Counted from the whole stretch's first letter, positions 8,368 to 42,212 are shown. The stretch: DNA of 57,095 nt, filler included, from Sphacelaria rigidula (GCA_964200075.2; 4 parts of 4 records of this genome joined end to end with filler, not necessarily neighbours in it); one strand, 5' to 3'. Numbers and translations are program-made. Notes: generated by a model from the letters alone, not told the origin.

Positions 8368-8635
8368 TGTGACGCCAGCTAGAAGAAGAATTGGTGGATC
8401 ACTGCTGTTGAGGTACTCCCCAGTCTTACGGGCCTCAGTTTCAGCTGTCATCCTTCACAACATTTCATTATCATGGAGTGACGTACCAGGCACCATCCTC
8501 CTAGACACGCCGGGTATCATCCCCGTGTCCCGGTCATTATTCAGAATCCTCCCAAAACCCTCCAGAACCCCTGTGCCCCCAGTCATTATCCAGATCATCA
8601 CTACCAGCTTAATGTAACGGCGTATTATTGTCACA
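8368..8635 (-). repeat. 3' LTR of A1
   Basis: Direct repeat of 12937-13204; about 24 substitutions in 268 bp by eye. Confidence 0.95.
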
Positions 8636-8667
8636 GCACCCCCAAAGCGCGGTGGACGAAAATCGAT

Positions 8668-10693
8668 CAACAAGCTTGACACATAGAAAACGCCAAAACG
8701 ATGATTAAGCCACAACTGAATACCAAACTCACTCGTAATGCGAGCAGCAACGGCACGCGTCACGCGCAATTCACGCAACTCCTTCGTCAGAAATTCCGGA
8801 GCGGCCTCACAAACATCCTTGAAAGTCTCTCACGTACGCTCCTCAACTTCGAAACCAACCCAGTCGACCAATACAATCAACGAACGATCGTTGTTTTCGC
8901 CACTCGGACAATATCAGCGATCTGAAACGGCCCTTGATTGAAAGCATGCTGGGACACGTCCTTAACGTCAGCAGTAACATTAAGCTGCGAGTCTGCACAA
9001 AAACGCAAACGAGCTACATGGGCGGTCTGAACACGAACCGAAACAATATTCTAAATATCAAACACATGCGGGTGGTGAGCACCAACCACTCTCCATGGAC
9101 CAGTCCACGTCGCCATCAAGTTGGGCGTAACGCCCGGATGACGCACGCGTGCATACAAGACATAGTCGCATAGCTAAAAATTCGGCAGTTCCAGCCCCGA
9201 CACTCCTCACGTCTACGCGCACGTTCAGCGGCAACACGTTCCTGCACTTAAACGTGAAAACGTTTTTGCAAGTCCAACAATCCTTGCAATGCACGCTTGA
9301 TTTGAACGTCGTCCAAAACATCACATTTCCATTCCCCCGCCGACGAAGACGCCAGCACCGGGAAAGACGTTCGAGGAGCACGACCAAACATCACGTGGTA
9401 CGACGTACTATCGTAGCGACGACGATACGCTGTACTGAGCGCCCATTGCACCGTAGGTAACACGTCCACCCACTCGGAATCCGCTCTACGCTGCTCGAGA
9501 AGAATAGAGCGAAGAGCACTAAGCACTTCCTTAACCATGCGTTTGGACGTGCCGTTAGACCACGGAGAATACGCCACCGCAAACTGGTGATCAACGCGCA
9601 AAGCCTCTCGTAATCGGGCCAAGTGATCATTCTCAAAATGCGTGGCGGTATCACTCACCCATACACGCGGCACCCCCAAAGGTTTGCACCAATTCAGCAA
9701 AGGTGCAGCCTTCGATTCAGCAGTACACACTGCTACTGGTTCCAGAGACACGAAGTTGCTAAAATCATTCATGATTACCAAAATGTATCGAAACCCAGTA
9801 CTCTCTGACGAATCTTGGGAAGCTAGCGGGCCACTCTTGCCCACGTACAAAAAGACACAATGAACGACTTCATTCGGCATGGTCCCATGAACCGTTTCAC
9901 CGAGCGGGCGGGGAACAACATCGCCCGCCCTCGAGTCAGCGCAGTGAAGACACTGGCGGATAAATTCGCGCACATGAGTTTCTATACCCTGCCGGACAAA
10001 AAACCTTTCCAAGCGCACGAGCGTCGCAGCCACACCAGGATGCCCGGCGTCGCGCATGTGCGCGCATATCATCAGACATACCTGCAACTGCTTGTCAGAA
10101 CTGGGAACCCACAAACCGTTTCGGCCACGCACATGCACACGAAATAGATATTTATTGTCCAAGATAGCAGTACCAAAGTCCGACTCGAAAGATTGCACAC
10201 CCGCATCTTCGGTCCCAAGGTCTTTTCGTTGCGCTTGGCGGACAACAGATTTGGACGTCATTGGGTCATGAAGTTCACCCGGACCATACGCAGCCACAGC
10301 ACGCACAGGCAAAGCCGGAATATTCACCCAACGCGAAAGCAAGTCACCCCACGCGTTACGGTCACCCGAAATATGGCAAATGGAATAACGGTACTGGCCA
10401 AGAATAGCTTTACAATCCTCCAATCGTTGTGTCAATGCCTTCGACACAGACGTAACACACGGTTCCGGGTTCAAGATATACACGAGATATCGGTAATCCG
10501 TGAAAATATGCACGCCATCCCACAAACGATGCTCCAAATGACAAAAAGCGCTCACAATAGCAACACCTTCCTTACCAATTGTGGCCCAACGCAACTGCGA
10601 ACCCTCGAAATTACCATCGAGGAAAGCCAGCGGTTTATGCGTCATATCCTCAACCGGCAAGTGTCTTTGCATTTCAACTTTAGGCACCTGCAT
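8668..10693 (-). pseudogene. A1 RNase H - integrase - chromodomain region (stops/frameshifts after 9248)
   Basis: RNase H motifs HKPLAFL..F..SQLRWATIGKEG, IFTDY, HISGDRNAWGDLLSR. Integrase HHCC (AHMRDAGH...CLHC) and core WVSDTATHF. The C-terminal part aligns to the A2 chromodomain. Confidence 0.9.
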
Positions 10694-11997
10694 GACAAAC
10701 TACCCCAATGGCACTCAGATACATCTGGAAACATTAGCACCTTGCAATCAGGGCGAGGATGGAACAGCGTCACGGCATGAGCCCCCAGATCCTTCGCTGC
10801 CACCCACGCCTGCAGCCTGCCCTCCGTCCACGATGCAGCTTTCTTCGGAGACGCCATACCCGGACTGGATCACCCCGCCTGCATATTCCGTAACACCAAC
10901 CCGAGCGCCAAAAGAGCCACCATGCACAACGTCAACCAACTCGACTTCACTGGATCGTACCACCGCGGCTTTGCCTTCACCGCGGACGCCCCGGGTTTGA
11001 GGTGAACACACATGTGCTCCACGCGTGCAGGGGGGTCACCCCGCAGCGCACGACGAAATGCGTTGACGCGGCGATGCAATATGCCACGCAGGCGCTCCGC
11101 TTTTGAGACGCTGAGGCCTTTCGCCACAGCATCCGTCAAGCTCTCCTCCGGCGCGATCTTCCGAGCGGACTCCTCTTCCGCCGGAACCATGAACATATCC
11201 GGGCCACGCTCTACTAGGCGTTTCACCGCCGCATCCCGCTCCTCGGTCACCTGCCCCCCAGCGTCCTGAAAAGTATCCACCGACAAGCTCACGCGACGAC
11301 TGCCCATAAAGGCGGGCGTCTCCAAGCGCGGACCAGGCGGAGACATCCGCGTCTTCATGGAGTCCAACCACTCATACGGGTCGACTCCAAGATCCTGAAG
11401 CGTCGGCAACCCCAGAGGGATGGCGCCATCCGACCCCGGCATGATCGCAAACGAGATCGGAGGCAACGGCGCCGGCCTCCAGGAAATCGTGCAAGTCAGC
11501 TGCAGCGAAACAGTACGCTCTGTGACGTAAACATGCTGACTCGACGCGGTGACGGCCTGCCGCGCCTCGAGCGAAAACGGCTTGCGGAGTGGCACACCCG
11601 GGGGAAGATGCTTCAACATCTCTACAATTTGTACCGATAGACTCACATGACGCGTCAAGTGAGCGCTAGAATCCCACTTAGCCCAAACCGCAATGGCTCC
11701 ACGCCCCCGTCGATTCGAAAGACACAGCTCCGCAGGAACATGTTCGTGCGCAGACTCCACTGGCAATTTATTTGCCGACCGATGCACCGCTAATCCCACT
11801 TAACGCCACGGCTGCGCAAGCTGTGCAGGCGAAGATGCCCCGGCAGGTTGAAACGGCACCGCCCACGGGTACGACGCCCAGCCAGCAGACCAAGAATTTG
11901 ACGAACCTCCGACTAGCGCATTAGCAGGCGTCGCGCCTAGCGCTGCTGCCGGTGTCGCCACCGGCGCCACCACCGGCGTCGGCGCAGTGTTCGACAC
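10642..11997 (-). pseudogene. A1 aspartic protease plus RT N-terminal stub fused in frame to the RT-connection/RNase H start
   Basis: WDSSAH protease site; IPLGLPTL; then LKPGASAVKAKPRWY...LRNMQAG*SSPGMASPKK joined directly to AASWTEGRLQAW...LFHPRPDCKVLMFPDVS. No YxDD core. Confidence 0.85.
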
Positions 11998-12120
11998 TGT
12001 AGAAGTCGGTCACACCTGCACCGCCCGTTGCGGAGCAGCAGCACCTACGGCGACGCTGGACCCACAACCAGACCCATGCTGACGCCCCCGCCGCCGCCGC
12101 CGCCGCCGTTGCTGCTGCTC

Positions 12121-12625
12121 CTACTGAGGACTCGACTGCGACCCTCCAGCGCCGGAGGATCCGCCGCCGCCACCACCCCGATTACCTCGTCCTTTGCCCT
12201 TGTGCTGACGAAGCTGCTGGCGCGCGGCATGAGATTGCCCCGACTCTCCACCGGAAGACGTTGGGCAATCGCGCGCGTAATGGCCGACCTGGCCATAACA
12301 GTGGCAAGTGCCCGCCGCATGCCCAGCATGCTTTTTGATCGCCGCAACCAATTACGGCGGGGTGATTGTGCCCTTTTAATGTTCCCCACGCGCAAACACT
12401 CTTTGCACATACGTCGGGACTTGTTGAGCCATCGACACTACCTACCTGATGTCTCACTGCATCCTCTGCGTTAGCGTGCTCCACACGCTCTCTGTACTCC
12501 GAGTACTTCGTACAAAAAGTGCGAGATGCACTCTCTCGGTAGCTATCCCTGTATTGGGGAGGTCGCAACGCTCCCCGCATGACCACGTTTGTCACGCTGG
12601 ACGCATCACGCGAGCCGGTCGCCAT
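12121..12625 (-). pseudogene. A1 gag remnant with degenerate zinc knuckle; central gag deleted
   Basis: LRPPQYRDSYRESASRTF...; IKKHAGHAAG joined directly to TCHCYGQVGHYARDC. About 420 bp present in A2 are missing. Confidence 0.85.
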
Positions 12626-12936
12626 AGCTGCAACCGGCTACCTGCGAACATTTTGCAGACCAGCGCACCTTCGCGGATTGCACACTTCCTTGCTTCGTCG
12701 CCGCACCTCATAGTTGTAGGAGCCTCGAAACTCCCGCTGCACGCAGCTTCAGCACGTCTCCAGTCCGGATCAATCACAGGCCAGTCGCCTTTCTGCAGCT
12801 AGCATCAGCTTGAACCCCCTCCACGCGTCCGTGATGCTTCAGATTGTCCCCAGCCGCCAGACTCTCCGCCGAAGTCCTTCCAGCAGGTTTTGCTAGGTAT
12901 TTCTTCTAGCATTAACACTAGCACTTATATCGATAT

Positions 12937-13204
12937 TGTGACGCCAGCCAGAAGAACAACTGGTGGATCACTGCTGTTGAGGGCCTCCCCAGTCTTACTG
13001 GCCTCAGTTTCAGTTGTCAGCCTTCACAAGATTTCATTATCATGGAGTGATCTACCAGGCACCATCCTTCTAGACACGCCGGGTATCATCCCCGTGTCCC
13101 GGTCATGATAAAGAATCCTTCCAGAATCCTCCGGAATCCCTGTGCCCCCAGTCATTATCCAGATCATCACCACCAGCTCAACGTAACGGCGTATTTTTGT
13201 CACA
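12937..13204 (-). repeat. 5' LTR of A1
   Basis: Direct repeat of 8368-8635, followed by TSD ggac. Confidence 0.95.
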
Positions 13205-13701
13205 GGACTCAGGTGACACCGTCGATCATATATCATATCTTTGGGAAATAAGAGATTCACCAAAGTTGTTTCGAAGCCAAAAGTGGAATATTCACAGCAA
13301 CACCGGGGCAACATCCAGCTATGAATCTGTGTGTTGCCAGGAGATATGGCACGCCAACGGCACGCTGGCAAAACTTCGACGTAATGGAAAATAACAAGGT
13401 TGTACGTAGTACCACGCCTTCTTTTCACCTGCCTGCCTGGTCCGGCGAAAACCCGGCGTACTCCACTCTGGCTTTTTAGGGGTGCGAGGCTAATGGTGTA
13501 GTGACCACGGCATGCACTACAACGCGTAATACACCCCTCCTTCTCCACGGGCTGCTTTACCATTCTTGGAGGTTTCCGAGTTGTTGCTGCTGAGTCAACC
13601 TGCTACGAATGTCCTTGATGGCAGGAACACACCACGATTTCTGGGCTTCTGGAGAGGACTGAATATTCGCAATTTACACGCGCAATATCGAACATTTCGA
13701 T

Positions 13702-13916
13702 GTGTGTTGTCGTCCCATCTATTCTGGACGCCGGTCTACACCTTTCGGTATGTGTGGGCGCATCAGCCGGGGTCACACAGGAAGAAGGTCAACACAGGAG
13801 CTTCTCTTTTTTTTTTGTGTATGGCACCCCACCTTTCTTTTGCGGTGCTTGAGTTTTTTTATCGCGAGAGGGGTTCAACAGTCATTTTACCTCGTCGACC
13901 GTTGAGTCGAGTTTGT
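13702..13916 (-). mobile_element. 5'-truncated tRNA-derived SINE copy
   Basis: Reverse complement matches the 3' half of 22329-22688 (tgtgtgaccccggctgatgcgcccac...ccagaatagatgggacgacaac). Confidence 0.8.
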
Positions 13917-14200
13917 TCGAAGGGGTCTGGTTTTTCGATCACGTTTCGAAGACCATCTTGTATGTATATGGCAACCAATCCGTATTTACAATTTTCGAAC
14001 AAATATGAGCATTTCAGCCCCTTTACAGGCGATTTTCTCCCGTGGATTGATTTTTCGGACCCCAGTGCGTTGAGCAATGTTTTTCGACTCCAGCAGCTTG
14101 AGGAAACCAGATCAATTCCCCGATTCTCTGAATAACAACAAATTGTGAGAATTGAGGTTTAACTTCGAGATGAGGCTCAAGCCTAAAACAGTGCTTTCCC

Positions 14201-14300
14201 NNNNNNNNNNNNNNNNNNNNNNNNNNNNNNNNNNNNNNNNNNNNTTAATTAATTAANNNNNNNNNNNNNNNNNNNNNNNNNNNNNNNNNNNNNNNNNNNN
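14201..14300. other. Assembly gap with TTAATTAATTAA spacer
   Basis: 100-bp N run with central six-frame-stop linker. Confidence 0.98.
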
Positions 14301-14670
14301 CGTTTAGACGCCAGACACGTCGTTCCTGACCAGCCTCTTGGTCGTTCTGGAGGCCCGGTCTCAAAAGGGTTAATAGTGTTGTGAAAAAACGCTATTTTGA
14401 ACCCCGACTCACTCACGTCATGTCAGAGGTCACCTGTGGGAGGTGTCTGCGCCTCAGGGTTTTTGTCTGGCTCGGGCTTCAGTCGGCACGCTAAATCTTG
14501 AGCGCTTTTCAGAACCGTCTCATGTCACGATATTCATTACGCATAGCAGGTATTGCACCGCCTGTTGTGTTTCGCGCGTGATAGGCGTAGAGCGTGCACT
14601 CCATCGGCCTCAATGTAGCGATGTAGCCAGCAGTCATGGTTCATAATGCAGTGACAGATGAGTGATCCCG

Positions 14671-22050: not shown

Positions 22051-25000
22051 TCAATTGCTCGCGCGACGACTCGAGTCCACTCCTTGCCCCCGTCGATCCT
22101 CTTTACTACGTTGATTCACACTCCTCTCCACGTCGTCGCTGCTGTCTGAGTCTGAAAGATCGAGCAAGGCGTTACGTAGCCGCTGGCAACGCTTTCCTTG
22201 CCGGGCGGTGGCCCTTTCCACGCAGTTGATTGCCTTGTCACCTAGCTGTTGGAACCACAGCAGCACAACAAACTTTGTGGTTGACTCATCTTTCGACGTT
22301 AAAACCGATGAGAAATATTCAGTATCGTGTCCCCGGTGGCTCAGTTGGTGGCCTCCAAACTTTCTGACGGTTGGATCGTGGGTTCGAATCTCGAAGCAAT
22401 GCGGGATTTTTCTTCACACAATGCCCAACAGTGGAGAGCGACTATGTCGCGGGTGCACAAAATTCGACGTAATGGTCGACGAGTCAAATAAGGGTCCGCT
22501 GAACCCCTCTCGCGATGCAGAGGAAAGGCAAGCACCGCAGGAGGAACGTGGAGAATAAAAGCAAGACAAAAAAGGGAAAACACGTGAGTTGGCTTCCCTA
22601 CTGTGTGACCCTGGCTGTTGCGCCCACATATACCAAAAGGTGAGGATCGGCGTCCAGAATAAATGGGACGGCAACAACAACAACAACACGGATTATGATT
22701 ACTGAATCAAAAGACGGCACTAAGATCGACGCATTGCCAATGTTAGGATAACTTGAACAATAAATCCCCTCCGCAAGCTACTGGCTGAAAGGGTTACAGA
22801 GGTGAGCACTTGAAACGTGAATAAACGGGCGATAGGATGATCCTCAGAAGTTTTGACTTGATGCAATAAAAACACTGACACTGCACGAGTGAGGCGTCAA
22901 CTTTTTCGCCGTATCCTCTTGTATTAACGAAGCTCATTCAAGATATCGAACTTCAAATCCCGTGTCCTCATAACAGGAGTAGTCCAAGGGATCAATCTGT
23001 TGTTTCTCTGCCTTGAAAAAAGTACCTACTGTACTGGTCAGTTGCCCGGTAGTTCCGTTCACAGTGTTTTAGGCGGTAGCGGACTGGTGCTTCAGACGCC
23101 CACCAACACTCCCCAACTTTTATTGATGTACCACGAGAACCACCGAGCTATCCGTGAGCTCTGACTGATAGCTCAGTAGTTGCTGTGATATCTCGATAGC
23201 AGTGGCTGGGTACAATGGTTCTTGTCACATCTTGACCAAAGCTCATGACGAGGCCCGTACAAACTGTCAAGCTCATGGATTCGATTTCACCCCAGGGCAT
23301 TTATCCCTGTAGCCGGTGTCGCTACTATATAGGGTCCATTATCCTTCTTGCCTGGCGTGTGCACCCAACCTTGGCGTGCTCCCATGCACTTCTTGCCAAA
23401 GACGATCAGCCAAGGATGATAACGAGGAAAACGAAACCCCGGGACTAATAATATTATAGCATTTCTTGAAATATCACAGTTACCATTGAGCTAAATTTCC
23501 TCGGGCCAGTCCAAGCTGTTGAGCCTATTGCCCTAGGTAAGAACAAGTACATTGAATATTACATCGTAGCAGCGCTGATCACAGAAATGTCAAATCTGGG
23601 GACGAGTCGGGAGCAGAAATCTACAGACTTGACAGCTTGGACGGTTCCCGGGATTAGCCTTTGTTTAGAGATACAGTATCAGAATAGCCACTGACCTACC
23701 AGTCAGGGCTGGCTGAGTAGCACAGGGGTTACTAAGTAGCGCAGGGGTTAGTTATTGTGAGAGATCGGAACCACCGAAGAAGTAGGCAACGCTTTTCAGC
23801 TGTTCAGCAACAACACCGATGTGCGTTGACCCAATTGTAATTTACTTTTATCCTGAGACTCCAACAACGCTCGGAGCGGCTTATGCGCGAATCGGTTTGA
23901 CACGCGGCGATACTCGCGACAAGGATTTTTTCCACACAGGCGTTGTGTCTCTACCAATAACAGCGATAACGATTGATTGGTTGATCGATTAACTAATTGG
24001 GGCACATTAAGGTTATCATTCACTGATTCACTACGATTCATAACCCAGTCAAAATCCAGTCGTAGTCACGAGATAGACATGCCCAAGGTGAATTAAACGG
24101 AAAGACTCACTCAAGGAAAATCGAGACACGGGAGAGAGGGACAAGACGAAAAGAAAGGAATCAACTAAAAAAACGGATACTACTGTGACGAGATTTTGAA
24201 AATAAATATCAAGGGAAATTAAATTCAAGGGGTATCGTTTGGCTGTTACTGCAGTTGGTACTAGTCTCTACAATAAGAGACATCAGACCACTGCGCATGG
24301 CTTCAGCTGAGGACATCATTCAAAAATCTACGTCGAAACTCCCCGAAAGCCTGGCCGATTGGCGGCGAACTGACGACTGGGCACTGGAAGCGTCACTGCA
24401 CGTATGGTGTTTTTTACAGCGAGATTACCGGGAAAGCGTGTGGGATGGGCATGCACTGACGCGTACTGACGTTAAATCTACGAAACCTCATACTACCCAT
24501 CGCATCTGTCCAAAAGGTACTGTGTAAGGCGGTCCCTGTGCAGACAGATGAGGTTGTTTCAGCGACAAGCCCTGAGAAGGGGTTTCAATACCATCATCAA
24601 GGCAAAGAGAACGGTAAAAGCGAGTTTTTGGATATACTCTTTGCGTCAAGCGGTCTTGTAAGGAGGTCAATGTCTAAAGTAAAGAAAAATCCCGATATCA
24701 GCGGAGCGTCTTTTGCGCTCACGTTATCTTTCACGCTTGGGTCACATCCGGCTTCCATAAGCAGGTAGACAACATCCAAGAACTCTCCAACGGCGGCCAG
24801 GTGAAGGGGTGTCCAACCATTGACGTGTTCCTTGGCATTCAAAGGATCACAATCGCGAACGTGATCTCCATCCGCTTCGTCCACGGTACTTTCTGTATTG
24901 AGATGAAATGTGGATCGGGTGTTTGGAAGAATTTGAGAAATTTGTTGGAAACTTGTGAATGGAAGCGCTTGGGAATAGCTGTGAGCGTGTTGAGATCTAG

Positions 25001-26786
25001 GCAAGAATAAGCATACTAAACCCTACATGATAGCTGCAGCGCTGATTGCAGGTATGATAATACTGGGGTCATATTGGGGTTCGATCTATATGCTAAACAG
25101 GTTGGACGAATCCCAGATAAACTTTCGTTGAGATGCCGCAATACCCACTGAGCTACCAGTCAGCGCTGACTCATGCCTCAGTAGATGGTTGTCATATAAT
25201 ATCTAGAGAACAGCGCAACCAGACAATCCACATATCCGCTCCCAAACAGACTCAATCAACGGGTGTTCCGAGGCCACCTTGCGGCCTGACTAATGGGGTA
25301 ATGTCTTGGAGTATGACATCCACGTAGGGCGGAAACCTAGTCGATGGTAAGATGGTGTAGCACTGAAAAAGGGCAAGGGAACCTCGAATGGATTCTAATC
25401 TGCACCCACGCCTCTCAAACTTTTGAACCTTGAGGTCTAACGGCGAAGCAAGTTACATGGCCAAGATCCAGTACAGCCTAATCGTACACTTCGAGTTTAC
25501 CACGGGGTCCTGTAGATTATAACAAAGACATCAAGGCCTATAAAGTTGTCATTTCGTCTTTGGGGGGGGGGGGGGGGGGGGGGGGTAATCATGATCTTGA
25601 ATGCCGTGGTCAAAGGTCATTGACCTCGCATCCCTACAAAGCCGGTACGTGGCACACGGGGTTTTCGCCGGACCAGGCTCGCAATCACCAAGAGCGAAGC
25701 ACCGTGCCATGTCCGGCGAGTCGTATGAAAAGTGACCTGTATCCTGATAACATTGTTCGACCCGCCGCGTGCTGATTACCTTGCATATGGATAGCAGCCC
25801 CGAAGGAGTTGCTTGATGTTCTGGTGTCGCCACTTCCGGAGACAGCCATGGGTTACACTGCTTCATGAGTGTCTCACCATCAGGGGGGGGAAGGGGGTCC
25901 AGTGAATTTCGTGCGCCCCATGGTGTGGAGTTATCATCCAGTATCCCGTAACGTACATTCGGCACAAACCCCCTACACCGCCCCACACAAACGCAAGCCA
26001 CACACCCCACCGCCGCAAAACTGATGAAAATGAACGTGCCGTAGCATGCCAGACCCGTACTATGCAACGCGTCTCATTCTAACCACCAGGACCCCCACAA
26101 ACCCACCAATTTTCGCTGCTCGTAACCCATGCAGCAAAACACTCGTCATGCTAACGCTTCCTCGCGAGCAAGCCCAGTGCAGGGGAGTCCAGCCATGGTT
26201 GTCAGCCTCCGAGGCGGATCCACCATCTCGCAGCCAACGCGCAAGTGCCCCCGTCTCCCCCTGCATTATCACGCGTGCCGCAGACCTGCGATATTTGGCG
26301 GGCTGGTGTGATATCTCCCATGTACCACTTATACGTACACTGCCCGCCCCAAAACAAGTGGAGATTTTAGCTGCCACATCTGGTAGTACTCCCCGCGATC
26401 CCTCCGGAGTGATTTTGCAACGCATTGGTCAGCATGCAGTGGAAGCAAAGAAACGACACCAACTGTCCGTGGATTGTACCTGTGGGTATTTATTCCTCCG
26501 GTGGAGATCTCTGAAGCCTTTGGGTGACATTTCTGACATTCCTCAACTTACCTTTTCAGGCCCTCCGTCTCATCCTTGCCCTCTCCTTCGCTGCATTGGT
26601 CAACGTCTACGCTAGGACGGCGGCGACGCCTTCTTTCCAGCTTTTGTCTATCCAGGGCTTCTTGTTCCGTCTCTGCGGGGGTGCTTTGCTTCACACACTT
26701 GGCGTCGTCGTACTGCTTCTCTCTCACGTCGACGTCGGCCGTCTCAGCAATTTCGTCCGCATGAGAGGTCGCCAATGGTACGCACG
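22051..26786 (-). CDS. Ankyrin-repeat protein; 5' end uncertain
   Basis: Phase-compatible exons ~26786-26552, 26285-26107, 24892-24723, 22245-22051. Ankyrin motifs ADNHGWTPLHWACSRG and EHVNGWTPLHLAAVGEFLDVVYLLMEAGCDPSVKDN|LGDKAIN. Confidence 0.85.
22329..22688 (+). mobile_element. Full-length tRNA-derived SINE with (CAA)n tail, in an ankyrin-gene intron
   Basis: Head with A box tggctcagttgg and B box ggttcgaatc; body shared with four other copies; tail caacaacaac. Confidence 0.85.
23560..23715 (+). repeat. Old dispersed repeat, second copy at ~25025-25175
   Basis: Shared gcagcgctgat..cag...ctgggg...acag.ttggacg..tccc...ccactga.ctaccagtcag.gctg. Confidence 0.55.
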
Positions 26787-28500: not shown

Positions 28501-28600
28501 NNNNNNNNNNNNNNNNNNNNNNNNNNNNNNNNNNNNNNNNNNNNTTAATTAATTAANNNNNNNNNNNNNNNNNNNNNNNNNNNNNNNNNNNNNNNNNNNN
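28501..28600. other. Assembly gap with TTAATTAATTAA spacer
   Basis: 100-bp N run with linker. Confidence 0.98.
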
Positions 28601-28718
28601 AGGGATTCATGGTGGATGATTAAACGACCAAGGCAAGCAAAAAATGAGTACGCCCCCCCCCCCCCGGCCCTATAATGAGTCCCCCCCCCCCCCCCCACCC
28701 GGCCCTCTCACCCGACAG

Positions 28719-31700
28719 GTCAACAGCATATGTTTCCTCGAGCCGCACCCTGCCTTGGCCACCTGCAACCTTGAGGGAGCCGTTGCTATTTGGCGCATGG
28801 GACTTCCGGAGAGTCGAAACGCTCTTCTCGAGCAATACCACGACGGCGGGAGCAGCGAAGAGTCTGTCCTTCCGCAACCCAACGGTGTCGACCCGAACGC
28901 GGAGTTGGGAACAGCCTGTGACCAGGCCAGAACAGATGCGGCGACGGTACGACCGTGCTCCGCTAACACGTGGCGATGTGTGGCGTTGTTTCACAATAAC
29001 ATGCGCCATCCGCCGCACGAGTTGAGCGGAGACTCGAATCAAGGACGCCCGGTGCCCTCGGCGGTCAACTGCTTGGCGTGGAGCCGTGTTGAGGAGCGCC
29101 TGTTCACTGGAGACACAGACGGCATGGTAAAGGTAAGGCAATCCGGAAAGTGGACGAGAGAGTACTTGCGGGAGTCACTGGTAGTTGTGATTCCGATGGA
29201 CGTTTTGATGGAGCGGTGATCCGAAGTAGCGCTACCGGAGTAGTCGCCACAGGTACTCTCTGCCGATCGCCGTGCTTTGGCGATCCTCGCTCACGTTAGG
29301 CGGGCGTGGTGGAGGTGTGCAGCACAGCGTCGTCCAACTAGAGCTTGTCGACCGTGACGGGCCATCGATTTCTCCTTACCGTTGGTGGTTTCGCGAACTG
29401 ACTGTACAGCTCTCCTAGATGTCGCTGAACCTGAGGGTGTCTCGAGAACACGTGTAATGTAGCAGGCCCAGGTGCATCCGAAGTCTCCGCCCATGCGACC
29501 CTGTCTTGCCGTGCTGCAACGCTCTTCACCGTGTATATCTGAGTGACATCGAACTTTCAAAGTCTCGGGATAGACCGGGGCTTGTCCACTTCAAGCGGTC
29601 GCTGCCCGACGTTGCGTGATTATTTCGGGACTCTTTTTGCGAAAATATTCCTTCCTTCACTCGGTTGTGGGTATGGTGATTTTTTTCGCATTTGGAGCGC
29701 CCTCGCCGCGTTTTTCAACACCTCGCAATCAGGAGGGTAGTTCGTCCGTCAAAGTACGGCATCCGTCAACACTAGTATACAAGCCGTTTCTATGCGCGAC
29801 AGGTATGCAGTTTTGTTTTGTTTTTCTTCACTTTCAGCGTCTCTACTGTGCACAGCAGGTGTGGGACGTGAAGAATGCGTTGACTCGTCCACAGGCGGAT
29901 GTTGACAGCCGCAATGATCGCGACGGCCGGCATCCCCCTCCAGAGCAAGACGCTCGTTCGTCAGTCTCAACTTCATTCGCGGGGCCAGGTTCGTCGAGGA
30001 GTAGCCCGCCCTCATCGTCCAGGAAAGTGTTAGGCGTCGACCAGCGAATGAACACCACTAACCGAGATAGCGGAGCGCCCGAGTGCTCAGGTACGAAGAG
30101 CGCAGCGATGGTTATCTAAACACCACCTCTGGAGATGGTAGAAGTAAAGTCGGAGAAGAAACACCCCATGCTGACGATTCACAATAAAAACATCAACGAT
30201 AGTGCCCCTGTCGACGTACTATGGTGATGACGATGGGAAGGATGAAGCCGCGACGCCTCAACAACCTGCTTTCGGAGGAGCCTCGATGCACTGTAGATAT
30301 CGTGAACCGGGTAGATACCACGAACAGGTTTTGCGGCCATTTCGATTTTATCTGACGGCACAGCGATCGAGTTGCGTTTTTGTATTTTTTGCTGAAAACG
30401 CAGGAAGCACGGGCCAAGGGAACGGGCAGGGTGGCCTCCAAGCGCTGGCGACACCTGCTGAGGATGACAGCGTCATCGATAGCGACGATCGCAACGAAGC
30501 GCTCTCTGAAACGGGGGGACAGCACGACACCGATAGTGAAGCCGAACACACAAGCGACGAGGAAGACGATGACGATGGTGACAGAGGAGCCAGAGGCGGG
30601 GGACAGACAAACGAAGGAACGGCGGTATCTCGACACTGGCGCTCTGCCAAAGACAATAGCTACATCTCTGACTTCGGCGAGGAGAGCATCGACGGGCAAC
30701 TGCTCGGCGACAGGCAAGTCGCGGCGAGGGTTGGGGAACGAGCGGTGGAGAGTAGGACGGTATCAGAAGAGTATTTGCGACCGTGCATTCGACAGTGAAC
30801 AACTGTGGTTCCCGGTTGAAGCGTACGCAACGAGCTGCGATCGCAAGAGTCAAATGCACTCAATCGTTATTTCGCGCGTTGATGCATTGTGACTTGCATG
30901 GTATCTCCAGGTTCGGTCGCGGATTGGGACTTCTCTATATTCGATGCGTGGGTGGTTGGAGGCCGGTGGGGTGGAGTCGGCAAGAAGTTACCACTGTGCG
31001 AATTTTTGAAGGCCACAACATCGCAATCCGCAAAAACACTGACGCTGGCGGCAACGGAGAGGGCAGTAGAGGAGGTGCCAGAGTTGGCGTTCAGGGAACG
31101 TACCGTGAACGAAAACGTGTCGGAGGCAAAACTCGGACTCGCGATAAGGACGAAGGCGTTAAAAATGGCGCGAATCGTGAGTGCGTTGTGGTGGCTACGA
31201 TTACCCCCGACAGACTCGTGAGGTTTTGGTCTACGAAGGGCGTAGCGCTTGGCAACCTGGATCAGGTGAGTAGCAGTAGCAGCAGCAATGTCGCCGTTTG
31301 TAGGCTCAACTCTTGTGACACCTTGGGCCTTTCTATTGAGAACGACATTTTTTTTTACTTTCATCTGTTTCTTGCCTTCCTCTGCGGGCTGTTTGATTTA
31401 TGGGTATGGGTTGTATGCTCCTTGCAATCTGTGACCACGGGTTCGAGAGATCGAGCTAATGTGACGAACATAATTACTACTACTACTACTACTGTTTGTT
31501 ATTATTATGATCATGATCATGATCATAATCATAATCATAATAATCATCACCCCAAATCTGAACAAATAAGCTAAATATGTCCCCCTTTGTGCTGACTCGC
31601 CGTCGTCGTATGTGAATGCGCGCCGTACACTGCAGGAGTTTGCCACCGCCCAGCACCCAGACACGGCAGCGCGACCTCTGGAATCCTGGCGGATGTCTGT

Positions 31701-33348: not shown

Positions 33349-34149
33349 TGTGTTGTGTTGTGTTGTGTTGTGTCGTCATCCCATCTATTCTGAACGCCAG
33401 TCTATACCTTTCGTTATATGTGGGCACATCAGCCGGGGTCACACAGGAGAAAGGCTACCACAGAAGATTTTTTCTTTACCAAGATTTTCATTTTGTTGTA
33501 GTACTCCGCCTATACCTTCTGCGGTGCTTGCCTTATTTTTGACCGCGCGAGAGAGGTTCAGCAGTCAACACGGAATTTTACAAAATGGAGAAGGATTTTT
33601 TTATTGGGGATGAGAAATCGGAGAATTCAAATCGTCATATCCACACAAAATCTTTGAAATATGGTTCCCTTTCGTCACGTGCTGGTAGCTATCGACAACT
33701 ACTGCACGAAATAACAATTTAAATTTCGATAACCGAAATGCTGGGGTCCTATGTGAAAAACCATTTTCTGGGAATTTCCGTGATCCGATCGGACCCCAAA
33801 GTTGGTTTTTCACCTAGGACTTCATCATTTCGATCATCGAACCCCAAATTTGTATGGCGTAAAGTAATTGTCAATAGCCATTAGCAAGCGAAGAGATGGT
33901 GTGGACACGAAGATTATAATTCTACGGGTTCTCATCTCCAGTAAAAAATCCATCCCGAATTTGTGAAATTCCGTGTTCGTCCATTTCTCTCGTCGACCGT
34001 GAAGTCGAATTTTGTGTACCCACGACGGAGTCGCTCTCCACTGGTGGTATGGTGTGAGAAAAATTCCCAGATCGTGTGACTTCACCGAGGTTCGAACCCA
34101 CGACCCAATCGCCGCAAGGTTTCGAGGTTACCAACAGAGCCACCGGGGC
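33349..34149 (-). mobile_element. tRNA-derived SINE split by a MITE insertion (3' half 33349-33566; head 33978-34149)
   Basis: The two halves join into the same sequence as 22329-22688 and 44654-44993. Confidence 0.85.
33567..33977. mobile_element. Foldback MITE (411 bp) inserted in a SINE
   Basis: TIR aacacggaattttacaaa / tttgtgaaattccgtgtt; imperfect 4-bp TSD agtc/cgtc; interior homologous to 4245-4643. Confidence 0.8.
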
Positions 34150-34595: not shown

Positions 34596-36392
34596 TGAGG
34601 ATGGGTAGAAAAGATTACGGGAACACCTGACACTTACAGGCTAGTTCACGGGAAAGACCCAAAAAACACTCATCAGCAAAACTTCACGCCGTTTTAGGGA
34701 GTTAGTCCCTGAAATTTTGCGCTAGTGTTCTATGGGCCATTACGCAACTTTTCAATGTTTTTGTTTTACTTCCCTGTGTTTTCACCGTTTTTCGGGGGTC
34801 CCAGTATTTGCGGGGAAACTTCGATCCAGTCCGACCCCCGTAAAATGGTAAAAAAACAAAAACCTCGTTCTCCCCAAAGTTGCGTAATTACCCGTAGAAC
34901 ACCTGAGCAAACTTTGAGGATCTAACTTCTTGAAACGGCGTGAAGTTTTCCGCGTTTATGCGATGAACCCTGTCGTGCCACGGTGAAACCGCAAACTAGC
35001 TCTACCAGATTTCAAGATGAAAATAGCGTTTTTTGGGCCTTCGTTGACATAAACATAAAAATTCAAGCATCAGTTGATCGAATTTGGCCACGAATCTTGG
35101 TAAGGCTCTTCCTTGGATTTGGCGGCGATAGGGCGTTTGCGAAAATATATATATATATATATATCTTAGTGCCGGTTTTCCGGGGTCCCAGAATGGAGAC
35201 GACTTCGAAAAACGACTTGAATCCCGTCAGACTCCCGAAAACCGGTATAAAAGTCAAGAATTAGAAAAACCTCGTTGATCGACAAGTTTGCAATGACTCA
35301 TAGCACATTTGTGCAAAGTTTCAGAGTCCAACTCAGAATAACGGCGTGAAGGTTTGCGCGTTTGTGCCAGGACATCAGCTCGAAACATGCCAACTCGCAA
35401 GTATACATGGTTATAGTATAACAACTGTGATATAGATGGAGGTAGAAACAAGGTCCACACCTTCCCAACTATGATCAGTGTGCTGCAGGCTCGAGTAGGT
35501 GCGCGAACGCACCAGGTGTCCGAGTAAAGCAAGGTGCAAATGCACACGTGCAGATTCACGTGACTGTTGGTCGCAGTAGCAACAAACAAAAGGAGCTCAA
35601 AGGCTTGATATCTTTTTAACTCTCACTGATTATCCCCTTGATCGCCCAGCACACTGTTCTCACCAATGGTAAACAGTAGGAGCAGATGGTCCGGCTCGAA
35701 GGGTAGCTCGAGAGTGAGCGAGGATGCATGGGTACATGCGACGCAACCTATCTGAATTCGGCCCGAGAAGGCGTTTGCCTCCTCGGGGCCAGGGCATGTC
35801 AGCCTGCACACTAATCTTCCCCTGCTAGGATATACCAGCCTGTGCATCAATCTTCCCTAGAACGCAGCCTGTACATCAACATTCCCCAGAAGTTTGGGAG
35901 CATTCCCATGGCTGGATCGAGTGATCTGTGAGCCAACCTGCCCCAAAACTGTCTGAAGGAACAAATAACGCCTCTCTATCTTCCTTCCTCATGACACAAC
36001 GCCGTCTTTGGGTGAGTTTTACGTCAAGGCAAGAAAAACTGTATGAGATTTTCGAGTATCTCGACCAAACTTTGTACATGTGTTCCTTGGACTATCCCGA
36101 GATGCATCATGTTACTCTCTTTTATTTTGAGGCATTCTGCACCGTCTTCCAGGAGTCTTCAGACTGGGACCCCTGAAAGCCGGTCAAGAACGGAGAAACT
36201 TTGAAATCTTGCCAAGAATACAATTTTTCCGTTTGAAGCGTCAATACCTACGAAACTGCCAAGTTTGAGGATGATCTGAAACAATTTTCAACATATATGA
36301 GGGAAAATCGCCACGAGACTCCCTGGGTCTTTCGCACGTATCATGAGTAGAAATTAGACCACGCCAAAACTCCATATCACCGAAACATTACG

Positions 36393-36643
36393 GACACTTT
36401 CTACGATAGCCCCCCCCAAAGAAGTGCATGGTTTTTGGAGGCAAAATCTTCACGTAAATCGAAGTGGGAAAAGCCGAGCACAACGAGCAGCTGGGAATTC
36501 CCACTTGGGTTCGTTCTAGCCAATGTCGCCAATATGAGGCGCTTCATGGAGCCTGAACCCAAACATCAGGCGTCGTATGGCCATTTTTTTCGTGACACTT
36601 TTGGGCTGGTTTTTTTGGGGGGGGGGCTATCGTAGAAAGTGTC
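36393..36643. mobile_element. MITE with GACACTTTCTACGATAGCCC TIR and 4-bp TSD
   Basis: Perfect TIR gacactttctacgatagccccc / ggggctatcgtagaaagtgtc; TSD tacg on both sides. Confidence 0.85.
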
Positions 36644-37406
36644 TACGGTTTCGGGCAATATTCGACCCCGTTGTAACCGTTTTCGAACCTGTTCCTCCCG
36701 GTAGATTCCCGTGATGGCACTTACTACGATTTCAAGCGTGTGGAGATTCGGTGGAAATTGAACTTGGAATTCGTGCTTTCAATCTCAAAACAATTTGAAA
36801 GGCGTTGATTGATCGAGATACGTTTTTGTCCATAGTGCCACCGCTATAGCCGCCTTCAACGAGAACCCGGCCATGTCACCCCCTTCGTCTGTTCATTTCG
36901 ATCAGTATGATACCATGTATGCAATTATGGGTGCATATTGCGGAAGGCGTTTGCTGATTACAGAATTTTGGGTCTTCTACGTGAACCAGTATAGCCTGTA
37001 AGACGGCATGGGACAGAAGGGAAGGGAATGGAGATTGCAGGGCATGCGGCTGAAAAAATGTGCACACGCGCGCGACTTTCTGACACTACGTGCCTTTTTG
37101 TTGTTATTGGTATGTATACACGCAGGGAAAAACTGAAACACCAGGCTGGGCCAGGCTAGGGGGAGGACTGTATACTGTGGGCAATTTTAGCAGCTCACTT
37201 GTTTTAGGCTTTCTTTAGAGTTCTAAATAAATGAATGGTTTGCTACTGGTATCTTACAGCAAGCCTTTTAATACGAATCTTTTGTGTGGAAGGCAACATT
37301 TTGAACTTCACAAAAACGTACTTATGAAAAAACAGGAGAGAGTCATGCCACGGTATGGCTTGCACATTTGGGCCCAGATCGTGAGGCTCCTACAAATAGG
37401 AAGTAA

Positions 37407-37654
37407 TGTGACGCCAGCCAGTGGAGGTACTGTTGGATCGCTCCTGTTGAGGGACCCCCCAGTCTTCCTGGCCTCAGTTTCAGTTGTCAGCCTTTACGAC
37501 ATTCTCATTATTCAGGAGTGCCCTTCCAAGGCACCCACTTAGACACGCCAGGGCATCAACCTAGTGTCCCCGGTCATTATCCAGATCATCACTACGAACG
37601 GTCATTATCCATACCATCACTACCAACTCAACGTAACGGCGTATTTTCATCACA
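37407..37654 (-). repeat. 3' LTR of A2
   Basis: TG...CA ends; direct repeat of 41982-42212. Confidence 0.95.
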
Positions 37655-37686
37655 GCACCCCTAAAGCGCGCTGGACGAACATTTGA

Positions 37687-39361
37687 TCAACAAGCTTGAC
37701 ACATAGAAAACGCCAAAACGAAGAGTAAGTCACCACTGAATACCAAACTCACTCGCGCAGCAACGGCACGAGTCACGCACAATTTACGCAACTCCTTCGT
37801 AGGAAATTCCGGAGCGGCCTCAAAAATGTCCTTGAGAGGCTCCCACGTGCGCTCCTCAACTTCGAAACCAACCCAGTCGACCAACACGATCAACGAACGA
37901 TCATTTGCTTTTGCCACTCGGACAATACCAGCCATCTGAAATTGCCCCTGATTGAAGGCATGCTGGAACACGTCCTTAACGTCAGCCGTAACATTAAGCT
38001 GCAAGTCTACATAAAAACGCAAACGAGCTACATGGGCGGTCTGAACACGACCCGAAACAATGTTCTTAATCTCAAACACGTGCGGGTGGTGAGCAACAAC
38101 CACTCCCCATGGACCAGTCCAAGTCGCCATCAATTTGGGCGTGACACCCGGACGACGCACGCGTGCATACAAGATATGGTCGCCTACCTCAAAATCCGGC
38201 AATTCCAACCCCGACGAGGACCCCTCACGTCTACGCGCACATTCAGCGGCAACACGTTCCTGTACTTGAACGTCGAAATTTTCTTGCAAGTCCAAGACTC
38301 TTTGCACTGCATGCTTAATTTGAACATCGTCCAAAACATCACAATTACATTCCCCCGCCGACGAAGACGCCAGCACCGAGAAAGACGTCCGAGGGGCACG
38401 ACCAAACATCACGTGGTACGGCGTACTATGGTAACGACGACGATACGCTGTATTAAGCGACCATTGCACCGCCAGCAACACGTCCACCCACTCGGAAACT
38501 GCTCTACGCTGCTCGAGAAGAATAGAGCGAAGAGCACGAACTACTTCCTTGACCATGCGTTCGCACGTACCGTTACACCACGGAGAATACGCCCCCGCAA
38601 ACTGGCGACCAACGCGCAAAGCCTCTCGCAATCGGGCCAAGATCGCATTCTTGAAATGCGTGGCGGTATCACTCACCCACAAACGCGGCACCCACAAAGT
38701 TCTGCACCAATTCAGCAAAGATGCAGCGGTCGATTCAGCAGTACACACTGCTACTGGTTCCAGAGCCACAAAGTTGCTCAAATCATCCATGACTACCAAA
38801 ATGTATCGGAACCCAGCATCCTCTGACAAACCTTGGGAAGCTGGCGGGCCACTCTCGCCCACGTACAAGAAGTCAAAATGAACGACTTCATTCGGCGTGG
38901 TCCCATGGACCGTTTCGCCGAGCGGGCGGGGAACAACATCGCCCGCCCTCGAGTTAGCACAGTGAAGACACTGGCAGACAAATTCGCGCACATGAGTTTC
39001 TATCCCCTGCCAGACACAAAACTCTTGCAAGCGCACGAGCGTCGCAGCCACACCACGATGCCGCGTCGCGCATGTGCGCGCAAATCATCAGACGTACCTG
39101 CAACTGCTTGTCAGAACTCGGAATCCACAAAACGTTGCGGTCACGCACATGCACACGAAACAGACCTTCATTGTCCAAGATAGTAGTACCAACGTCCGAC
39201 GCGAAAGATTGCACATCCGCATCTTCGGCCCCAAGGTCTTTTCGTTGGGCTCGGCGGACAACAGATTTGGACGGCATCGAGTCATCAGGTTCACACGGAC
39301 CATTCACAGCCACAGCGCGCACAGGCATTTGAATTTCAACTGTAGGCACCTGCATGACCAA
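37687..39361 (-). pseudogene. A2 integrase with chromodomain (open 37687-39051; frameshift in the HHCC region)
   Basis: VVHFDFL, WVSDTATHF and NGTCE give an intact D,D-35-E. TWTGPW (GPY/F-like). Chromodomain-like VLVDWVGFEVEERTWEPL. Confidence 0.92.
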
Positions 39362-39432
39362 ACTACCCTAAAGACACTCAAATGCATCCAGAAACATCAA
39401 CACTTTACAACCAGGACGAGAATGGAGCGGCG

Positions 39433-41673
39433 TCACGGCATGATCAACCAGATCCTTCGCTGCCGCCCACGCCTGCAGCCTGCAGCCTGCTTCGGAAACG
39501 CCATCTCTAGACTGGACCACCCCGCCTGCAAATTCCGTACTACCAACCCGAGCGCCAAAAGAGCCGCCATGCACAACACAAACCAACTCGACTTCACTGG
39601 ATCGTACCGCCGCGGCTTCGTCTTCGCTGCGGACGCCCCAGGTTTTAGTTGAACACGCATGGGCTCCACGTGCGCAGGGGGGTCACCACGCAGCGCACAT
39701 CGAAAGGCGCTGACGCGGCAATGCAATATGCCGCGCAGGCGCTCCGCTTTTTTGACGCTGAGGCCTTTCGCCACAGCATCCGTCACGCTCTCCTCCAGCG
39801 CGACCTTCCGAGCGGACTCCTCTTCCGCCCGGTCCATGATCATATCCGGGCCGCGCTCTAATAAGCGTTCCACCGTCACATCCCGCTCCTCGGTCACCTG
39901 CTTCCCAGTCTCCTGAAAAGCATCCACCGACAAGTTCACGAGACGACTGCCCGAAAAGGCGGCCGTCTCCAGTTGCGGACCAGGCGGAGACAGCCGCGCC
40001 TTGATAGAACCTTTCAACCGCTCATTCGGGTCGACTCCTAGATCCTGTAGCGTCGGCAGCCCCAGAAGAACAACGCCATCCGACCCTGGCATAATCGCAA
40101 ACGAGATCGGAGGCAACGGCGCCAGCCCCCAAGCAACCTTGAAGGCTAACTGCAACGGAACAGTACGCTCCGTGACTGAAGCATGCTGACCTGACGCGGT
40201 GACTGCCTGCCGCGCCCCGAGCGAAAACGGGATGCGCAGCGGCACACCCGGGAGTTGACGCTCCAGCATCTCAACCATCTGCACCGGCAGAGCAGTGAAA
40301 TGGGCGCCAGAATCCAACACAGACCGAACCACAATGGCTCCGTGCTCCCGTTGATTTGAAAGACACTGCTCCGCCGGGATGTATCTGTAAACAAGCTCCA
40401 CGGGAACTCCTTCCGCTGACCTATGCGTCGCTAATCCCACTTGACGCCACGGCTGCGCAAGCTGCGCAAGCTGCGCAAGCTGCGCAGGCGAAGACGCCCC
40501 GGCAGGTTCAAACGGCACCGCCGGCGGGTACGCCCCCCAGCCAGCAAACCAAGAATTCGGCGACCCTCCGACCACAGGCGTCGCGCCTGGCGCTGCTGCC
40601 GGTGTCGCCGCCGGCGCCACCACCGGCGCCGGTGCAGTGTTCGACTCTGTAGAAGTTGGGCCCACCTGCACCACCCGTTGCGAAGCAAAAGCACCTACGG
40701 CGGCGCCGGACCCAGAGCCAGGCCCATGCTGCTGCTGCTGCTGCTGCGGCTGCTGCTGAGGGCTCGCCAGCGACCCTCGATCGTCGGAGGATCCGCCGCC
40801 ACCACCACGATTACCTCGTATTTTGCCCTTGTGCTGACGATGCTGATAGCGCGCGGCCCTAGACTGCCCAGACTCTCCACCGGAAGACGTTGGTCAATCG
40901 CGCGCGTGATGGCCGACCTGGCCACAGCGGTGGTAAGTAGTACTCGCGACGCGACCAGCCGATTTCGAGCCATGGTTACGCAGAGATTTCGGCGAAGAGA
41001 TGGACGACTGGCCGAACACCTCTATTTTCCGCAACTCCTTGGCCTTGGCCACGACGGTGCCCATCACCAGGTAAGGGTCGTCCTTCCAATCCGTTTGGTG
41101 CTGCAGCTTGACAAGCACGGCTCGCTTGAACTTTTCCGGTGCCAACCCCTCCACCAACGCCTTAGTGATTACTGCTGCCGGGCCGGGGATGAACTCACCA
41201 TCGGGGGAACGATATACTAGTTCCACGTTTGGATTTCCCGTGAAGTACTTCTCCAAACTGGCCAAGATGGGCTCCACACGCTCCAACATCGCTTTCCCCC
41301 GAGAATTCCTTGCGACAGCTTTCGCCACGGCCGCGGACGCTTGGGCCAGATCTACCTCGGCGCCCGCCGCATGCCCAACATGCTTTTTGATCGCCGCAAC
41401 CAATTGCGGCGAGGTGACAGTGCTCTCATTATGTTCCAAACGAGCAAACACTCTCTGTACATGAGTCGGCACTTGTTGAGCCATTGTCACCACCTGATGC
41501 CGCATGGCACCCCCTGCATTAGCGTGCTCCACACGCTTCCTGTATTCCAAATACCTCGTGTAAAAAGTGCGAGATGCACTCTCTGAGTACCTGTCCCCGT
41601 ATCGAGGAGGTCGCAAATTTTCCCGCATGACCACGGGTGTCACGGTGGACGTACCTCGTGAGCCGGTAGCCAT
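39433..41673 (-). pseudogene. A2 gag - protease - RT stub, one reading frame with a single premature stop at 40894-40896
   Basis: ORFs 40894-41673 and 39433-40674 are in the same frame. Knuckle YHRCGQVGHHARD*; protease VLDSGAHF and VVLLGLPTL; RT start PMRVQLKPG...WSSLEMAFPK. Confidence 0.9.
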
Positions 41674-41981
41674 AGCTGTAGCTGTAACCGGCTACCTGCG
41701 AACCTCTGCAGGCCAGCGGGTCTTCTCGAATTGCACTTTCCTTGCTTCGTCGCCGCACATCACAGTCAAAGGAGCCTCCAAACTCCCGCTGCATGCAGCT
41801 TCTGCAAGTCTCCAGCCTGGATCAACCACAGGTCAGCCGCCTTTCTGCAGCCACCACCAGCTTGAACCCCCGTCACGCATCCGTGATGTTGTTCGCAGCT
41901 GCCAGACTCACTCCGCCGAAATCCTTTTCAGCAGATTTCCAGCACAGACACTAACACTAGCACTAGCACCAATATTGATAT

Positions 41982-42212
41982 TGTGACGCCAGCCAGTGGA
42001 GGTACTGTTGGATCGCTCCTGTTGAGGGACCCCCCAGTCTTCCTGGCCTCAGCTTCAGTTGTCAGCCTTTACAACATTCTCATTATTCAGGAGTGCCCTT
42101 CCAAGGCACCCACCTAGACACGCCAGGGCATCAACCTAGTGCCCCCGTTCATTATCCAGATCATCACTACGAACGGTCATTATCCATATCATCACTACCA
42201 ACTCAACGTAAC
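41982..42212 (-). repeat. 5' LTR of A2 (outer end truncated)
   Basis: Matches 37407-37637, then diverges. Confidence 0.92.

Follow-up and report, generated by a model that had tools for sequence, protein, structure and literature searches.

The question raised by a 57-kb window of the brown alga Sphacelaria rigidula (GCA_964200075.2; the window is the whole stretch analysed, 57,095 nt with filler) is how two retrotransposon copies at separate places came to lack the same part of their coding region. The window carries two related long terminal repeat (LTR) elements, A1 and A2, both on the minus strand, and in each of them the start of the reverse transcriptase (RT) runs directly into the RNase H region. 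According to our analysis, A1 and A2 are probably separately inserted, decayed members of an RT-less, non-autonomous subfamily within a brown-algal Ty3/Gypsy family with a single open reading frame (ORF), going back to one ancestral deletion and copied by a helper. The elements were read from the window, open stretches were searched with Pfam, and a full-length RT-bearing relative, P0002 (1661 aa), was used as tblastn query against the window.

The deletion junction in A1 and A2

A1 matched residues 241-721 of P0002 at 12333-10840 and then residues 953-998 at 10833-10696, and A2 matched residues 2-721 at 41682-39487 and then 958-1008 at 39481-39329. As the alignments break off at residue 721 and restart at 953 or 958 just 6 nt later, residues 722-952 are gone from both elements. 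On P0002 itself Pfam placed RVT_1 at 718-871 and the beginning of RT_RNaseH_2 at 954, and the loss therefore comprises the whole polymerase domain together with the thumb, cut out almost from domain edge to domain edge. A tblastn search of the whole window with two RT segments of close relatives (E<=10) for an RT remnant gave a best match of only E=0.5. The RVT domain, whose appearance inside either element the sequence-only reading of this DNA had named as a sign against itself, had no Pfam match on any large open stretch of the window.

On the minus strand the DNA of A1 reads ..CCGAAGAAA GCTGCA TCGTGG.. across the junction and is translated in one frame as ..SSPGMASPKK-AASWTEGRLQAW.., which bears out the earlier description of an RT start fused in frame to the RNase H region, with the correction that an in-frame TGA (10870-10872) lies 10 codons upstream. 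The join of A2 is identical to that of A1 and is followed by a 16-nt gap flanked by GCA repeats, just as the sequence-only reading had it, and because of this 16-nt deletion the frame of A2 is shifted at the junction. A 24-nt pattern laid across the join had exactly two matches in the window, those of A1 and A2, against 0 expected by chance. The corresponding DNA of RT-bearing relatives is covered by two algal contigs found in bacterial metagenome-assembled genome (MAG) records, L002 at the 5' point and L004 at the 3' point. Set beside these, the join can be explained by a plain deletion, in which base 1 of an Asp codon that follows Pro-Lys-Lys would have been fused to bases 2 and 3 of a Pro codon that precedes Ala-Ser-Trp. 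The fusion codon at the join is a new Ala, common to all carriers, and the frame is kept.

A probable single deletion and two later insertions

The different flanks, the different LTR subtypes and the unequal divergence of the LTR pairs, put earlier at ~9% and ~3% by eye, stood up to measurement. The LTR pair of A1 is 91.0% identical (Kimura two-parameter distance, K2P, 0.096) and that of A2 is 97.4% identical (K2P 0.027), and LTRs of A1 compared with those of A2 are 78.8% identical (K2P 0.25), with indels of 20-22 nt. The insertions took place at different times, A1 being the older copy and A2 the younger. No collinear similarity was found between the flanks of A1 and A2, and a segmental duplication was rejected on this ground. 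The identical join, taken with the unrelated flanks, the target-site duplication (TSD) of A1 and the differing LTR subtypes and ages, argues for a deletion older than both insertions. A single event predating both, as proposed earlier, is thus the reading that the sequences support, and the further carriers and the trees described below point the same way.

It could still be envisaged that the deletion arose in one copy and was passed to the other after insertion, by gene conversion or ectopic recombination across the 29 kb between them, since the two copies share one orientation and lie in a single 57-kb window, and A2 has no TSD and an altered LTR end, as recombinant elements can show. However, the junction shows no tract of raised identity: A1 and A2 are 84-89% identical near it as against 88-92% in the integrase (INT), and no conversion tract is indicated because the former does not exceed the latter. 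In addition, each LTR pair matches itself far better than it matches the LTRs of the other element, and the junction recurs elsewhere, in proteins encoded on other S. rigidula contigs and in a diverged contig from a public read set. Spread after insertion is thus very unlikely, and we return to a deletion that predates both insertions.

Over the 498 nt before the junction, the K2P distance between A1 and A2 is 0.138, compared with 0.20 to the relative L003 and 0.30 to the RT-bearing L002. If half of each LTR distance is taken as decay after insertion (sum ~0.06), about half of the distance between A1 and A2 would have been in place before they inserted, and on the single-origin reading this earlier divergence would have arisen in ancestors that were already RT-less.

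Further carriers were found outside the window. A search with a 75-aa stretch across the junction returned three proteins, of which P0068 from S. rigidula reads ..FPKE-AASWTEGRLRAW.. (FPKE-AASWTEGRL), the other two having RT-side sequence before SWTE. P0067, again from S. rigidula, starts with AASWTEGRLQAW (AASWTEGRL) and is open for 334 aa from RNase H into integrase, and by its first residues it probably carries the junction as well. Among 17 proteins with the WTE motif, RT-side sequence lies upstream in 14 and a different deletion in 1, 'AAS' being confined to P0067 and P0068. One match of the junction pattern in JGI metagenome contigs (L001) was put down to chance, as it has no tblastn or blastn similarity to the element; no relatives were found in viral contigs, and no further copies in three MAG records with algal contigs.

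Contigs (Logan) of four public runs were compared with 8000-12900 of the window; one of these runs may be the sample behind the window assembly. Contig 26 of run X5 (240 nt) spans 10681-10918, with 78 and 150 nt on either side of the join, and its 32 differences from A1 make it another junction-bridging copy. The boundary between the flank and the LTR of A1 (8000-8410) is reproduced in three runs, with 0, 6 and 3 differences. A loose end of run X4 at 10834 encodes ..KAIPPE before SW and is RT-bearing sequence. The family is highly repeated, run X1 alone giving 13133 contig pieces with a summed depth of 5.5e3-2.3e5 against 30 for the flank, a figure that is not a copy number. As an observation apart from the junction, the bin 10460-10623, which lies within a part of the A1 RNase H region (10296-10623) that is absent from A2, had a summed contig depth 10-30 fold below that of neighbouring element bins in all four read sets. 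In the majority of related copies this stretch may be missing or strongly diverged, and the RNase H-less, A2-type form could be the commoner one.

The same material bears on the idea that the RT region was simply collapsed or dropped when a repeat-rich window was assembled, an idea to which the high repetition of the family and the masked runs of N elsewhere in the window lend something. An artefact would have to account for the same join in two differently diverged copies, in an annotated protein of another assembly record (P0068) and in the X5 contig that bridges it, and the flank-to-LTR boundary of A1 appears in contigs of three runs (of which one may be the window's own sample). We therefore give an assembly artefact hardly any weight.

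The relatives with names come from S. rigidula, Hapterophycus canaliculatus and Ectocarpus, and the named copies closest to A1 and A2 are those of S. rigidula; the RNase H-integrase stretch of A1 shares 53% identity with the protein P0010 of Ectocarpus. Intact RT-bearing polyproteins of 1658 and 1661 aa stand in the two nearest clusters and are 77-85% identical in the integrase. The contigs L002, L003/L008 and L004 come from bacterial MAG records (Myxococcota, Arsenicibacter and Planctomycetota) with short contigs that encode this brown-algal family, which looks like eukaryotic contamination of the bins. In an integrase tree (271 columns), A1 and A2 were sisters with weak support (78/74), beside P0001. 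An RNase H-integrase tree (334 columns, 14 rows) grouped A1, A2 and P0067 at 82/81, within a 98/100 group that includes P0001. A tree of the stretch from protease (PR) to the RT start (281 columns, 22 rows) gave {A1,(P0049,(P0048,A2))} at 98/98, apart from the RT-carrying rows P0001, P0002, P0040 and P0045.

Deletions are frequent in this family, which makes the finding in A1 and A2 less exceptional. P0074 has lost the RT core with other breakpoints, P0038 and P0098 are without RT and RNase H, P0060 and P0167 are further deletion derivatives, and P0234 lacks residues 767-1479 and is elsewhere 99.5% identical to P0002. Also counted among the internal deletion derivatives is L003/L008, L008 (4982-9129) being a 4.1-kb form that has lost residues 736-1569; its two LTRs are 95.5% alike, and it has LTR-end and polypurine tract (PPT)-like motifs in common with A1 and A2. 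In P0091 and P0093 the 3' breakpoints fall 1-3 codons from the 3' point of the junction, at the WTE motif.

This abundance would suit a recurrent by-product, in which the deletion was made anew from RT-bearing masters, at a template-switch hot spot or by splicing of genomic RNA, each copy being dead on arrival and no lineage perpetuating itself. The nearby 3' ends of P0091 and P0093 would fit, as would two splice-like motifs: in L002, TTG|GTAAGC lies 18 nt past the 5' point, and in L004 a pyrimidine stretch with CCCCCAG at its end immediately precedes the 3' point. However, use of those motifs would yield another join, which would either break the frame or be shorter by two codons, and in the relatives the sequence at the breakpoints starts with GA/AC and not GT, and does not end with AG; splicing was rejected as the origin of the junction on this breakpoint DNA. 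The junction-made Ala codon, or the 'AAS' peptide, is present in all carriers, whereas the 5' points of the other derivatives differ. Furthermore, A1, A2 and P0067 form one clade, and A1 and A2 are nearer to each other than to any available RT-bearing sequence. Repeated production of the deletion is in our view improbable, if less so than the two alternatives above.

Several points nevertheless weigh against a single old deletion carried on in a helper-copied subfamily. The carriers known are A1 and A2 as full copies, the partial proteins P0067 and P0068, and a single contig; the junction was found in 0 of 30 near-length protein matches to the A1 junction read-through, and a representative search (E<=1e-3) showed the identical junction in none of the best 150 of 347 matches beyond those already named. 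The contigs of the runs do not separate RT-less from RT-bearing copies and yield no ratio of the two. The 3' points of P0091 and P0093 lie so close by that the site may be deletion-prone. No TSD was found where one was looked for around A2, its outer 5'-LTR end being altered and the duplication for this reason not findable. In the PR tree an exclusive pair of A1 and A2 was rejected (approximately unbiased test, p-AU 0.0065), because the S. rigidula sequences P0048 and P0049 nest between them, and these two end before the junction and so give no reading of the RT state. The RNase H-integrase clade is moderately supported (82/81) and was sampled without an RT-bearing member. Lastly, RT-bearing relatives were seen as database proteins and as the one loose end in a read set, and no partner from the same genome has been identified among them.

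Structure, coding constraint and mobilisation

The nearest database proteins are single-ORF polyproteins of 1658-1661 aa that comprise gag, PR, RT, RNase H, INT and a chromodomain-like tail. The window copies are collinear with P0002, in which the Pfam order is RVT_1, RNase H-like, Integrase_H2C2, rve and Chromo, and it is through this collinearity that the Ty3/Gypsy order gag-PR-RT-RNase H-INT can be recognised in A1 and A2, the RT itself being gone from both. In the window copies Pfam matched the gag zinc knuckle, the RNase H-like domain and the zinc-binding and core domains of integrase. Integrase_H2C2 scored 32.5 and 30.4 bits in the two copies, above its cut-off of 25.5, while rve reached 20.2 and 23.8 bits in these decayed copies, under the cut-off of 32.6, and Chromo 20.1 bits in A2 and 19.0 in P0002, both under 25.1. 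The LTR termini of A1 are TGTGAC..GTCACA. The features are collected in Table 1.

Table 1. Coordinates in the window of elements A1 and A2 and of their parts
Feature	Position	Strand	Remarks
A1, RT-less Ty3/Gypsy element, older copy	8368..13204	-	4837 bp; LTR pair, alignment to P0002
A1 3' LTR	8368..8635	-	PPT-like conserved G-rich tract CGCGCTTTGGGGGTGC just before the LTR at 8636-8660
A1 5' LTR	12937..13204	-	end on element strand ..GGCGTCACA, then conserved ATATCGATAT
A1 TSD GGAC, 4 bp	8364..8367 and 13205..13208	.	
A1 gag remnants, including CCHC zinc knuckle	12124..12637	-	
A1 protease and RT start, open 309 aa	10873..11799	-	stops at in-frame TGA 10870-10872
A1 deletion junction	10834..10840	-	P0002 residue 721 ends at 10840, 953 starts at 10833; ~229-231 codons gone, in frame
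A1 RNase H and integrase open stretch, 483 aa	9251..10699	-	frame differs by one from that of the junction stretch, owing to a frameshift near 10697
A1 C-terminal region, chromodomain-like, split over two frames	8713..9200	-	P0002 tblastn
A2, RT-less element, younger copy	37407..42221	-	outer end past 42212 uncertain
A2 3' LTR	37407..37654	-	
A2 5' LTR	41982..42212	-	outermost ~17-20 nt changed or gone
A2 gag-PR-RT start, one frame	39436..41691	-	one stop 40894-40896; passes the junction and ends 17 codons on, out of frame
A2 deletion junction	39481..39487	-	join as in A1, then directly a private 16-nt deletion (= A1 10821-10836)
A2 354-nt (118-codon) deletion of RNase H core	39327..39328	-	= A1 10312-10665
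A2 integrase and chromodomain-like open stretch, 465 aa	37690..39084	-	

Neither copy is open throughout. A1 has its TGA, several frameshifts and, compared with A2, a loss of ~141 gag codons at 12309/12310; A2 has the one stop in gag-PR, the 16-nt deletion, the loss of the 354-nt RNase H core and one more frameshift.

Over the 1139 codons shared by A1 and A2, the Nei-Gojobori dN/dS was 0.56 (bootstrap confidence interval, CI, 0.46-0.69), with values of 0.47 for gag (CI 0.30-0.72), 0.58 for PR and the RT start (CI 0.40-0.86), 0.73 for integrase (CI 0.49-1.09) and 0.41 for the C-terminal part (CI 0.25-0.73). The frame is kept by 9 of the 16 coding indels but by just 1 of the 16 non-coding ones (Fisher p=0.006). 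The excess is concentrated upstream of the junction, where 8 of 9 indels leave the frame intact, whereas 6 of the 7 downstream indels shift it. At least two of the upstream indels lie within period-3 or period-9 tandem arrays, and the upstream excess is partly explained by this, as triplet-type arrays give in-frame indels by slippage. The sequences thus retain some sign of past constraint, mostly in gag-PR.

The sequence-only reading had gone further and seen in the in-frame junction a hint of selection to keep integrase translated. This claim is not supported by the present comparison: the interval for the integrase dN/dS reaches past 1, nearly all downstream indels break the frame, a junction would fall in frame by chance alone in 1 of 3 cases, A2 loses its frame at the junction and is without its RNase H core, and the frame-keeping excess lies in gag-PR.

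A bolder possibility is that the RT-less lineage was an old and diversified 'RT-only parasite', under selection on its own Gag-PR and perhaps its integrase-chromodomain, which borrowed only the polymerase from a helper. Hints of this may be seen in the large deletions, all three of which are multiples of three (~690, 423 and 354 nt), and in the in-frame coding indels, the overall dN/dS, the domain-exact deletion and the 334-aa frame of P0067. We regard this possibility as unlikely on present evidence. If true, it would describe a semi-autonomous state between elements of the type of the terminal-repeat retrotransposons with a GAG domain (TR-GAG) and full autonomy.

On the reading that we prefer, one ancestral copy would have lost ~230 codons, a stretch that begins 4 residues inside RVT_1 and reaches to residue 1 of the RNase H-like domain. 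Packaging, reverse transcription and integration of its RNA would have been possible in any particle to which an RT-bearing relative contributed RT and RNase H. Such RNA should have remained copyable because the LTRs and the signals next to them were kept: A1, A2 and L008 have in common the LTR ends, ATATCGATAT downstream of the 5' LTR and the G-rich tract CGCGCTTTGGGGGTGC upstream of the 3' LTR. The lineage would then have diversified, to LTR subtypes ~21% apart and an internal K2P of ~0.14. Later, part of gag would have gone from A1, and 16 nt as well as the RNase H core from A2, and stops and frameshifts would have been added. The earlier proposal that a lineage encoding its remaining proteins in one frame kept retrotransposing on RT from a helper can thus be kept in part. 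RT-less copies did go on inserting; neither copy, however, is one open frame, and mobilisation by a helper is what we infer. As a separate observation on the sequence that follows the 5' LTR (12880-12936 and 41925-41981, minus strand), it is a conserved palindrome, ATATCGATAT (ATATCAATAT in A2), and is not an obvious TGG-starting tRNA primer site.

The remainder of the window holds features of other kinds. Between A1 and A2 lie host-gene exons at 24600-26428 (-) and 28620-29216 (+), with ankyrin-repeat stretches and a WD40-like stretch by Pfam. Another repeat family occupies the right end, with an 820-bp inverted pair (47576-48392 and 53830-53033, 82%) and further repeats at 48162-48637, 51171-51424, 53034-53263 and 55566-55754; weak gag-like matches, 26-36% similar to gag of P0002, lie there at 52064-52540 and 56317-56556 (-). 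A short dispersed repeat of ~100-220 bp occurs in at least five places, in both orientations and 75-89% alike (13701-13917, 22500-22679, 33365-33478, 44698-44853 and 48640-48857). The segments 4257-4628 and 33598-33878 share a ~290-bp match in both orientations (~75%), which suggests a palindromic repeat like a miniature inverted-repeat transposable element; their spacing mimics that of A1 and A2, but they are not collinear with them. Two blocks of tandem-like 40-nt units, 78-86% alike, are found at 4679-5259 and 5937-6456. Paired 44-nt runs of N at 14201-14300, 28501-28600 and 42799-42898, spaced by ~14.3 kb, are read as masked stretches and not as assembly gaps of varied size.

Place among non-autonomous elements

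With RT gone from both copies, the same deletion at different loci and the cis signals kept, A1 and A2 represent an ordinary non-autonomous deletion subfamily. They were not assigned to TR-GAG, to large retrotransposon derivatives (LARD) or to terminal-repeat retrotransposons in miniature (TRIM), as PR, RNase H-like, integrase and chromodomain-like regions are retained. A close parallel in kind comes from the mouse, where the passages cited on the intracisternal A-particle (IAP) I-delta-1 describe a non-autonomous form, the most active one, in which a specific internal deletion leaves a fusion frame open (PMC6466679). Like it, A1 and A2 show an internal deletion in a recognisable, propagated subtype whose proteins would be needed in trans from full-length elements, presumably so in the algal case. 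In contrast, IAP I-delta-1 is, in the same passages, a class II endogenous retrovirus that has lost part of gag and pol, and both its activity and its cis-acting fusion protein were shown experimentally (PMC6466679). A1 and A2 have lost only the RT polymerase and thumb, belong to an algal Ty3/Gypsy family, are known from sequence, and are both broken.

A similar comparison holds for plants. RLG_Cereba/RLG_Quinta and RLG_Sabrina of wheat, and TR-GAG elements, are described in the parts cited as having LTR ends, primer-binding site and PPT like those of the autonomous partner, with some coding kept and long persistence beside that partner (PMC11302176, PMC13570524), features to which A1 and A2 can be likened. 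In those accounts, however, RT and INT are both gone from Quinta, Sabrina and TR-GAG, which keep gag only (with an unknown domain in Quinta) (PMC11302176, PMC13570524), whereas in the lineage of A1 and A2 the loss would have been confined to RT, with PR, RNase H, INT and the chromodomain-like tail still present at first, beside a presumed partner. In sugar beet, 15 of 43 domain-carrying non-autonomous families are reported to have one or more additional POL domains left in partly decayed form (RT, RH, INT or chromodomain), and partial-pol derivatives are therefore a described category (PMC13570524). Unlike the present case, that work concerns plants at the level of families, and the part of it cited does not describe a domain-exact RT deletion common to diverged copies (PMC13570524).

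Among brown algae, Gypsy lineages of Ectocarpus carry a C-terminal chromodomain fused to integrase, comparable to the chromodomain-like tail of the present family; according to the sections cited they fall outside the chromoviruses, and those sections describe gag-only Copia derivatives and no RT-less Gypsy subfamily (PMC12477816). The chromovirus label that the sequence-only reading gave to the lineage is at most a tentative one. A narrow search of the literature, supplements excluded, yielded no account of a brown-algal Gypsy subfamily that has lost RT alone.

IAP I-delta-1, Quinta, Sabrina and TR-GAG are well-documented cases of defined deletion subtypes spreading in trans, and what is known of non-autonomous retroelements in general is unchanged by A1 and A2. 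Their interest lies in the brown algae, whose transposon biology is little explored, and in which they offer a datable example of stepwise coding loss, first of RT and then of RNase H or part of gag, in the course of which copying continued. The shared junction provides a marker with which the subfamily and its helper could be traced in the full genome.

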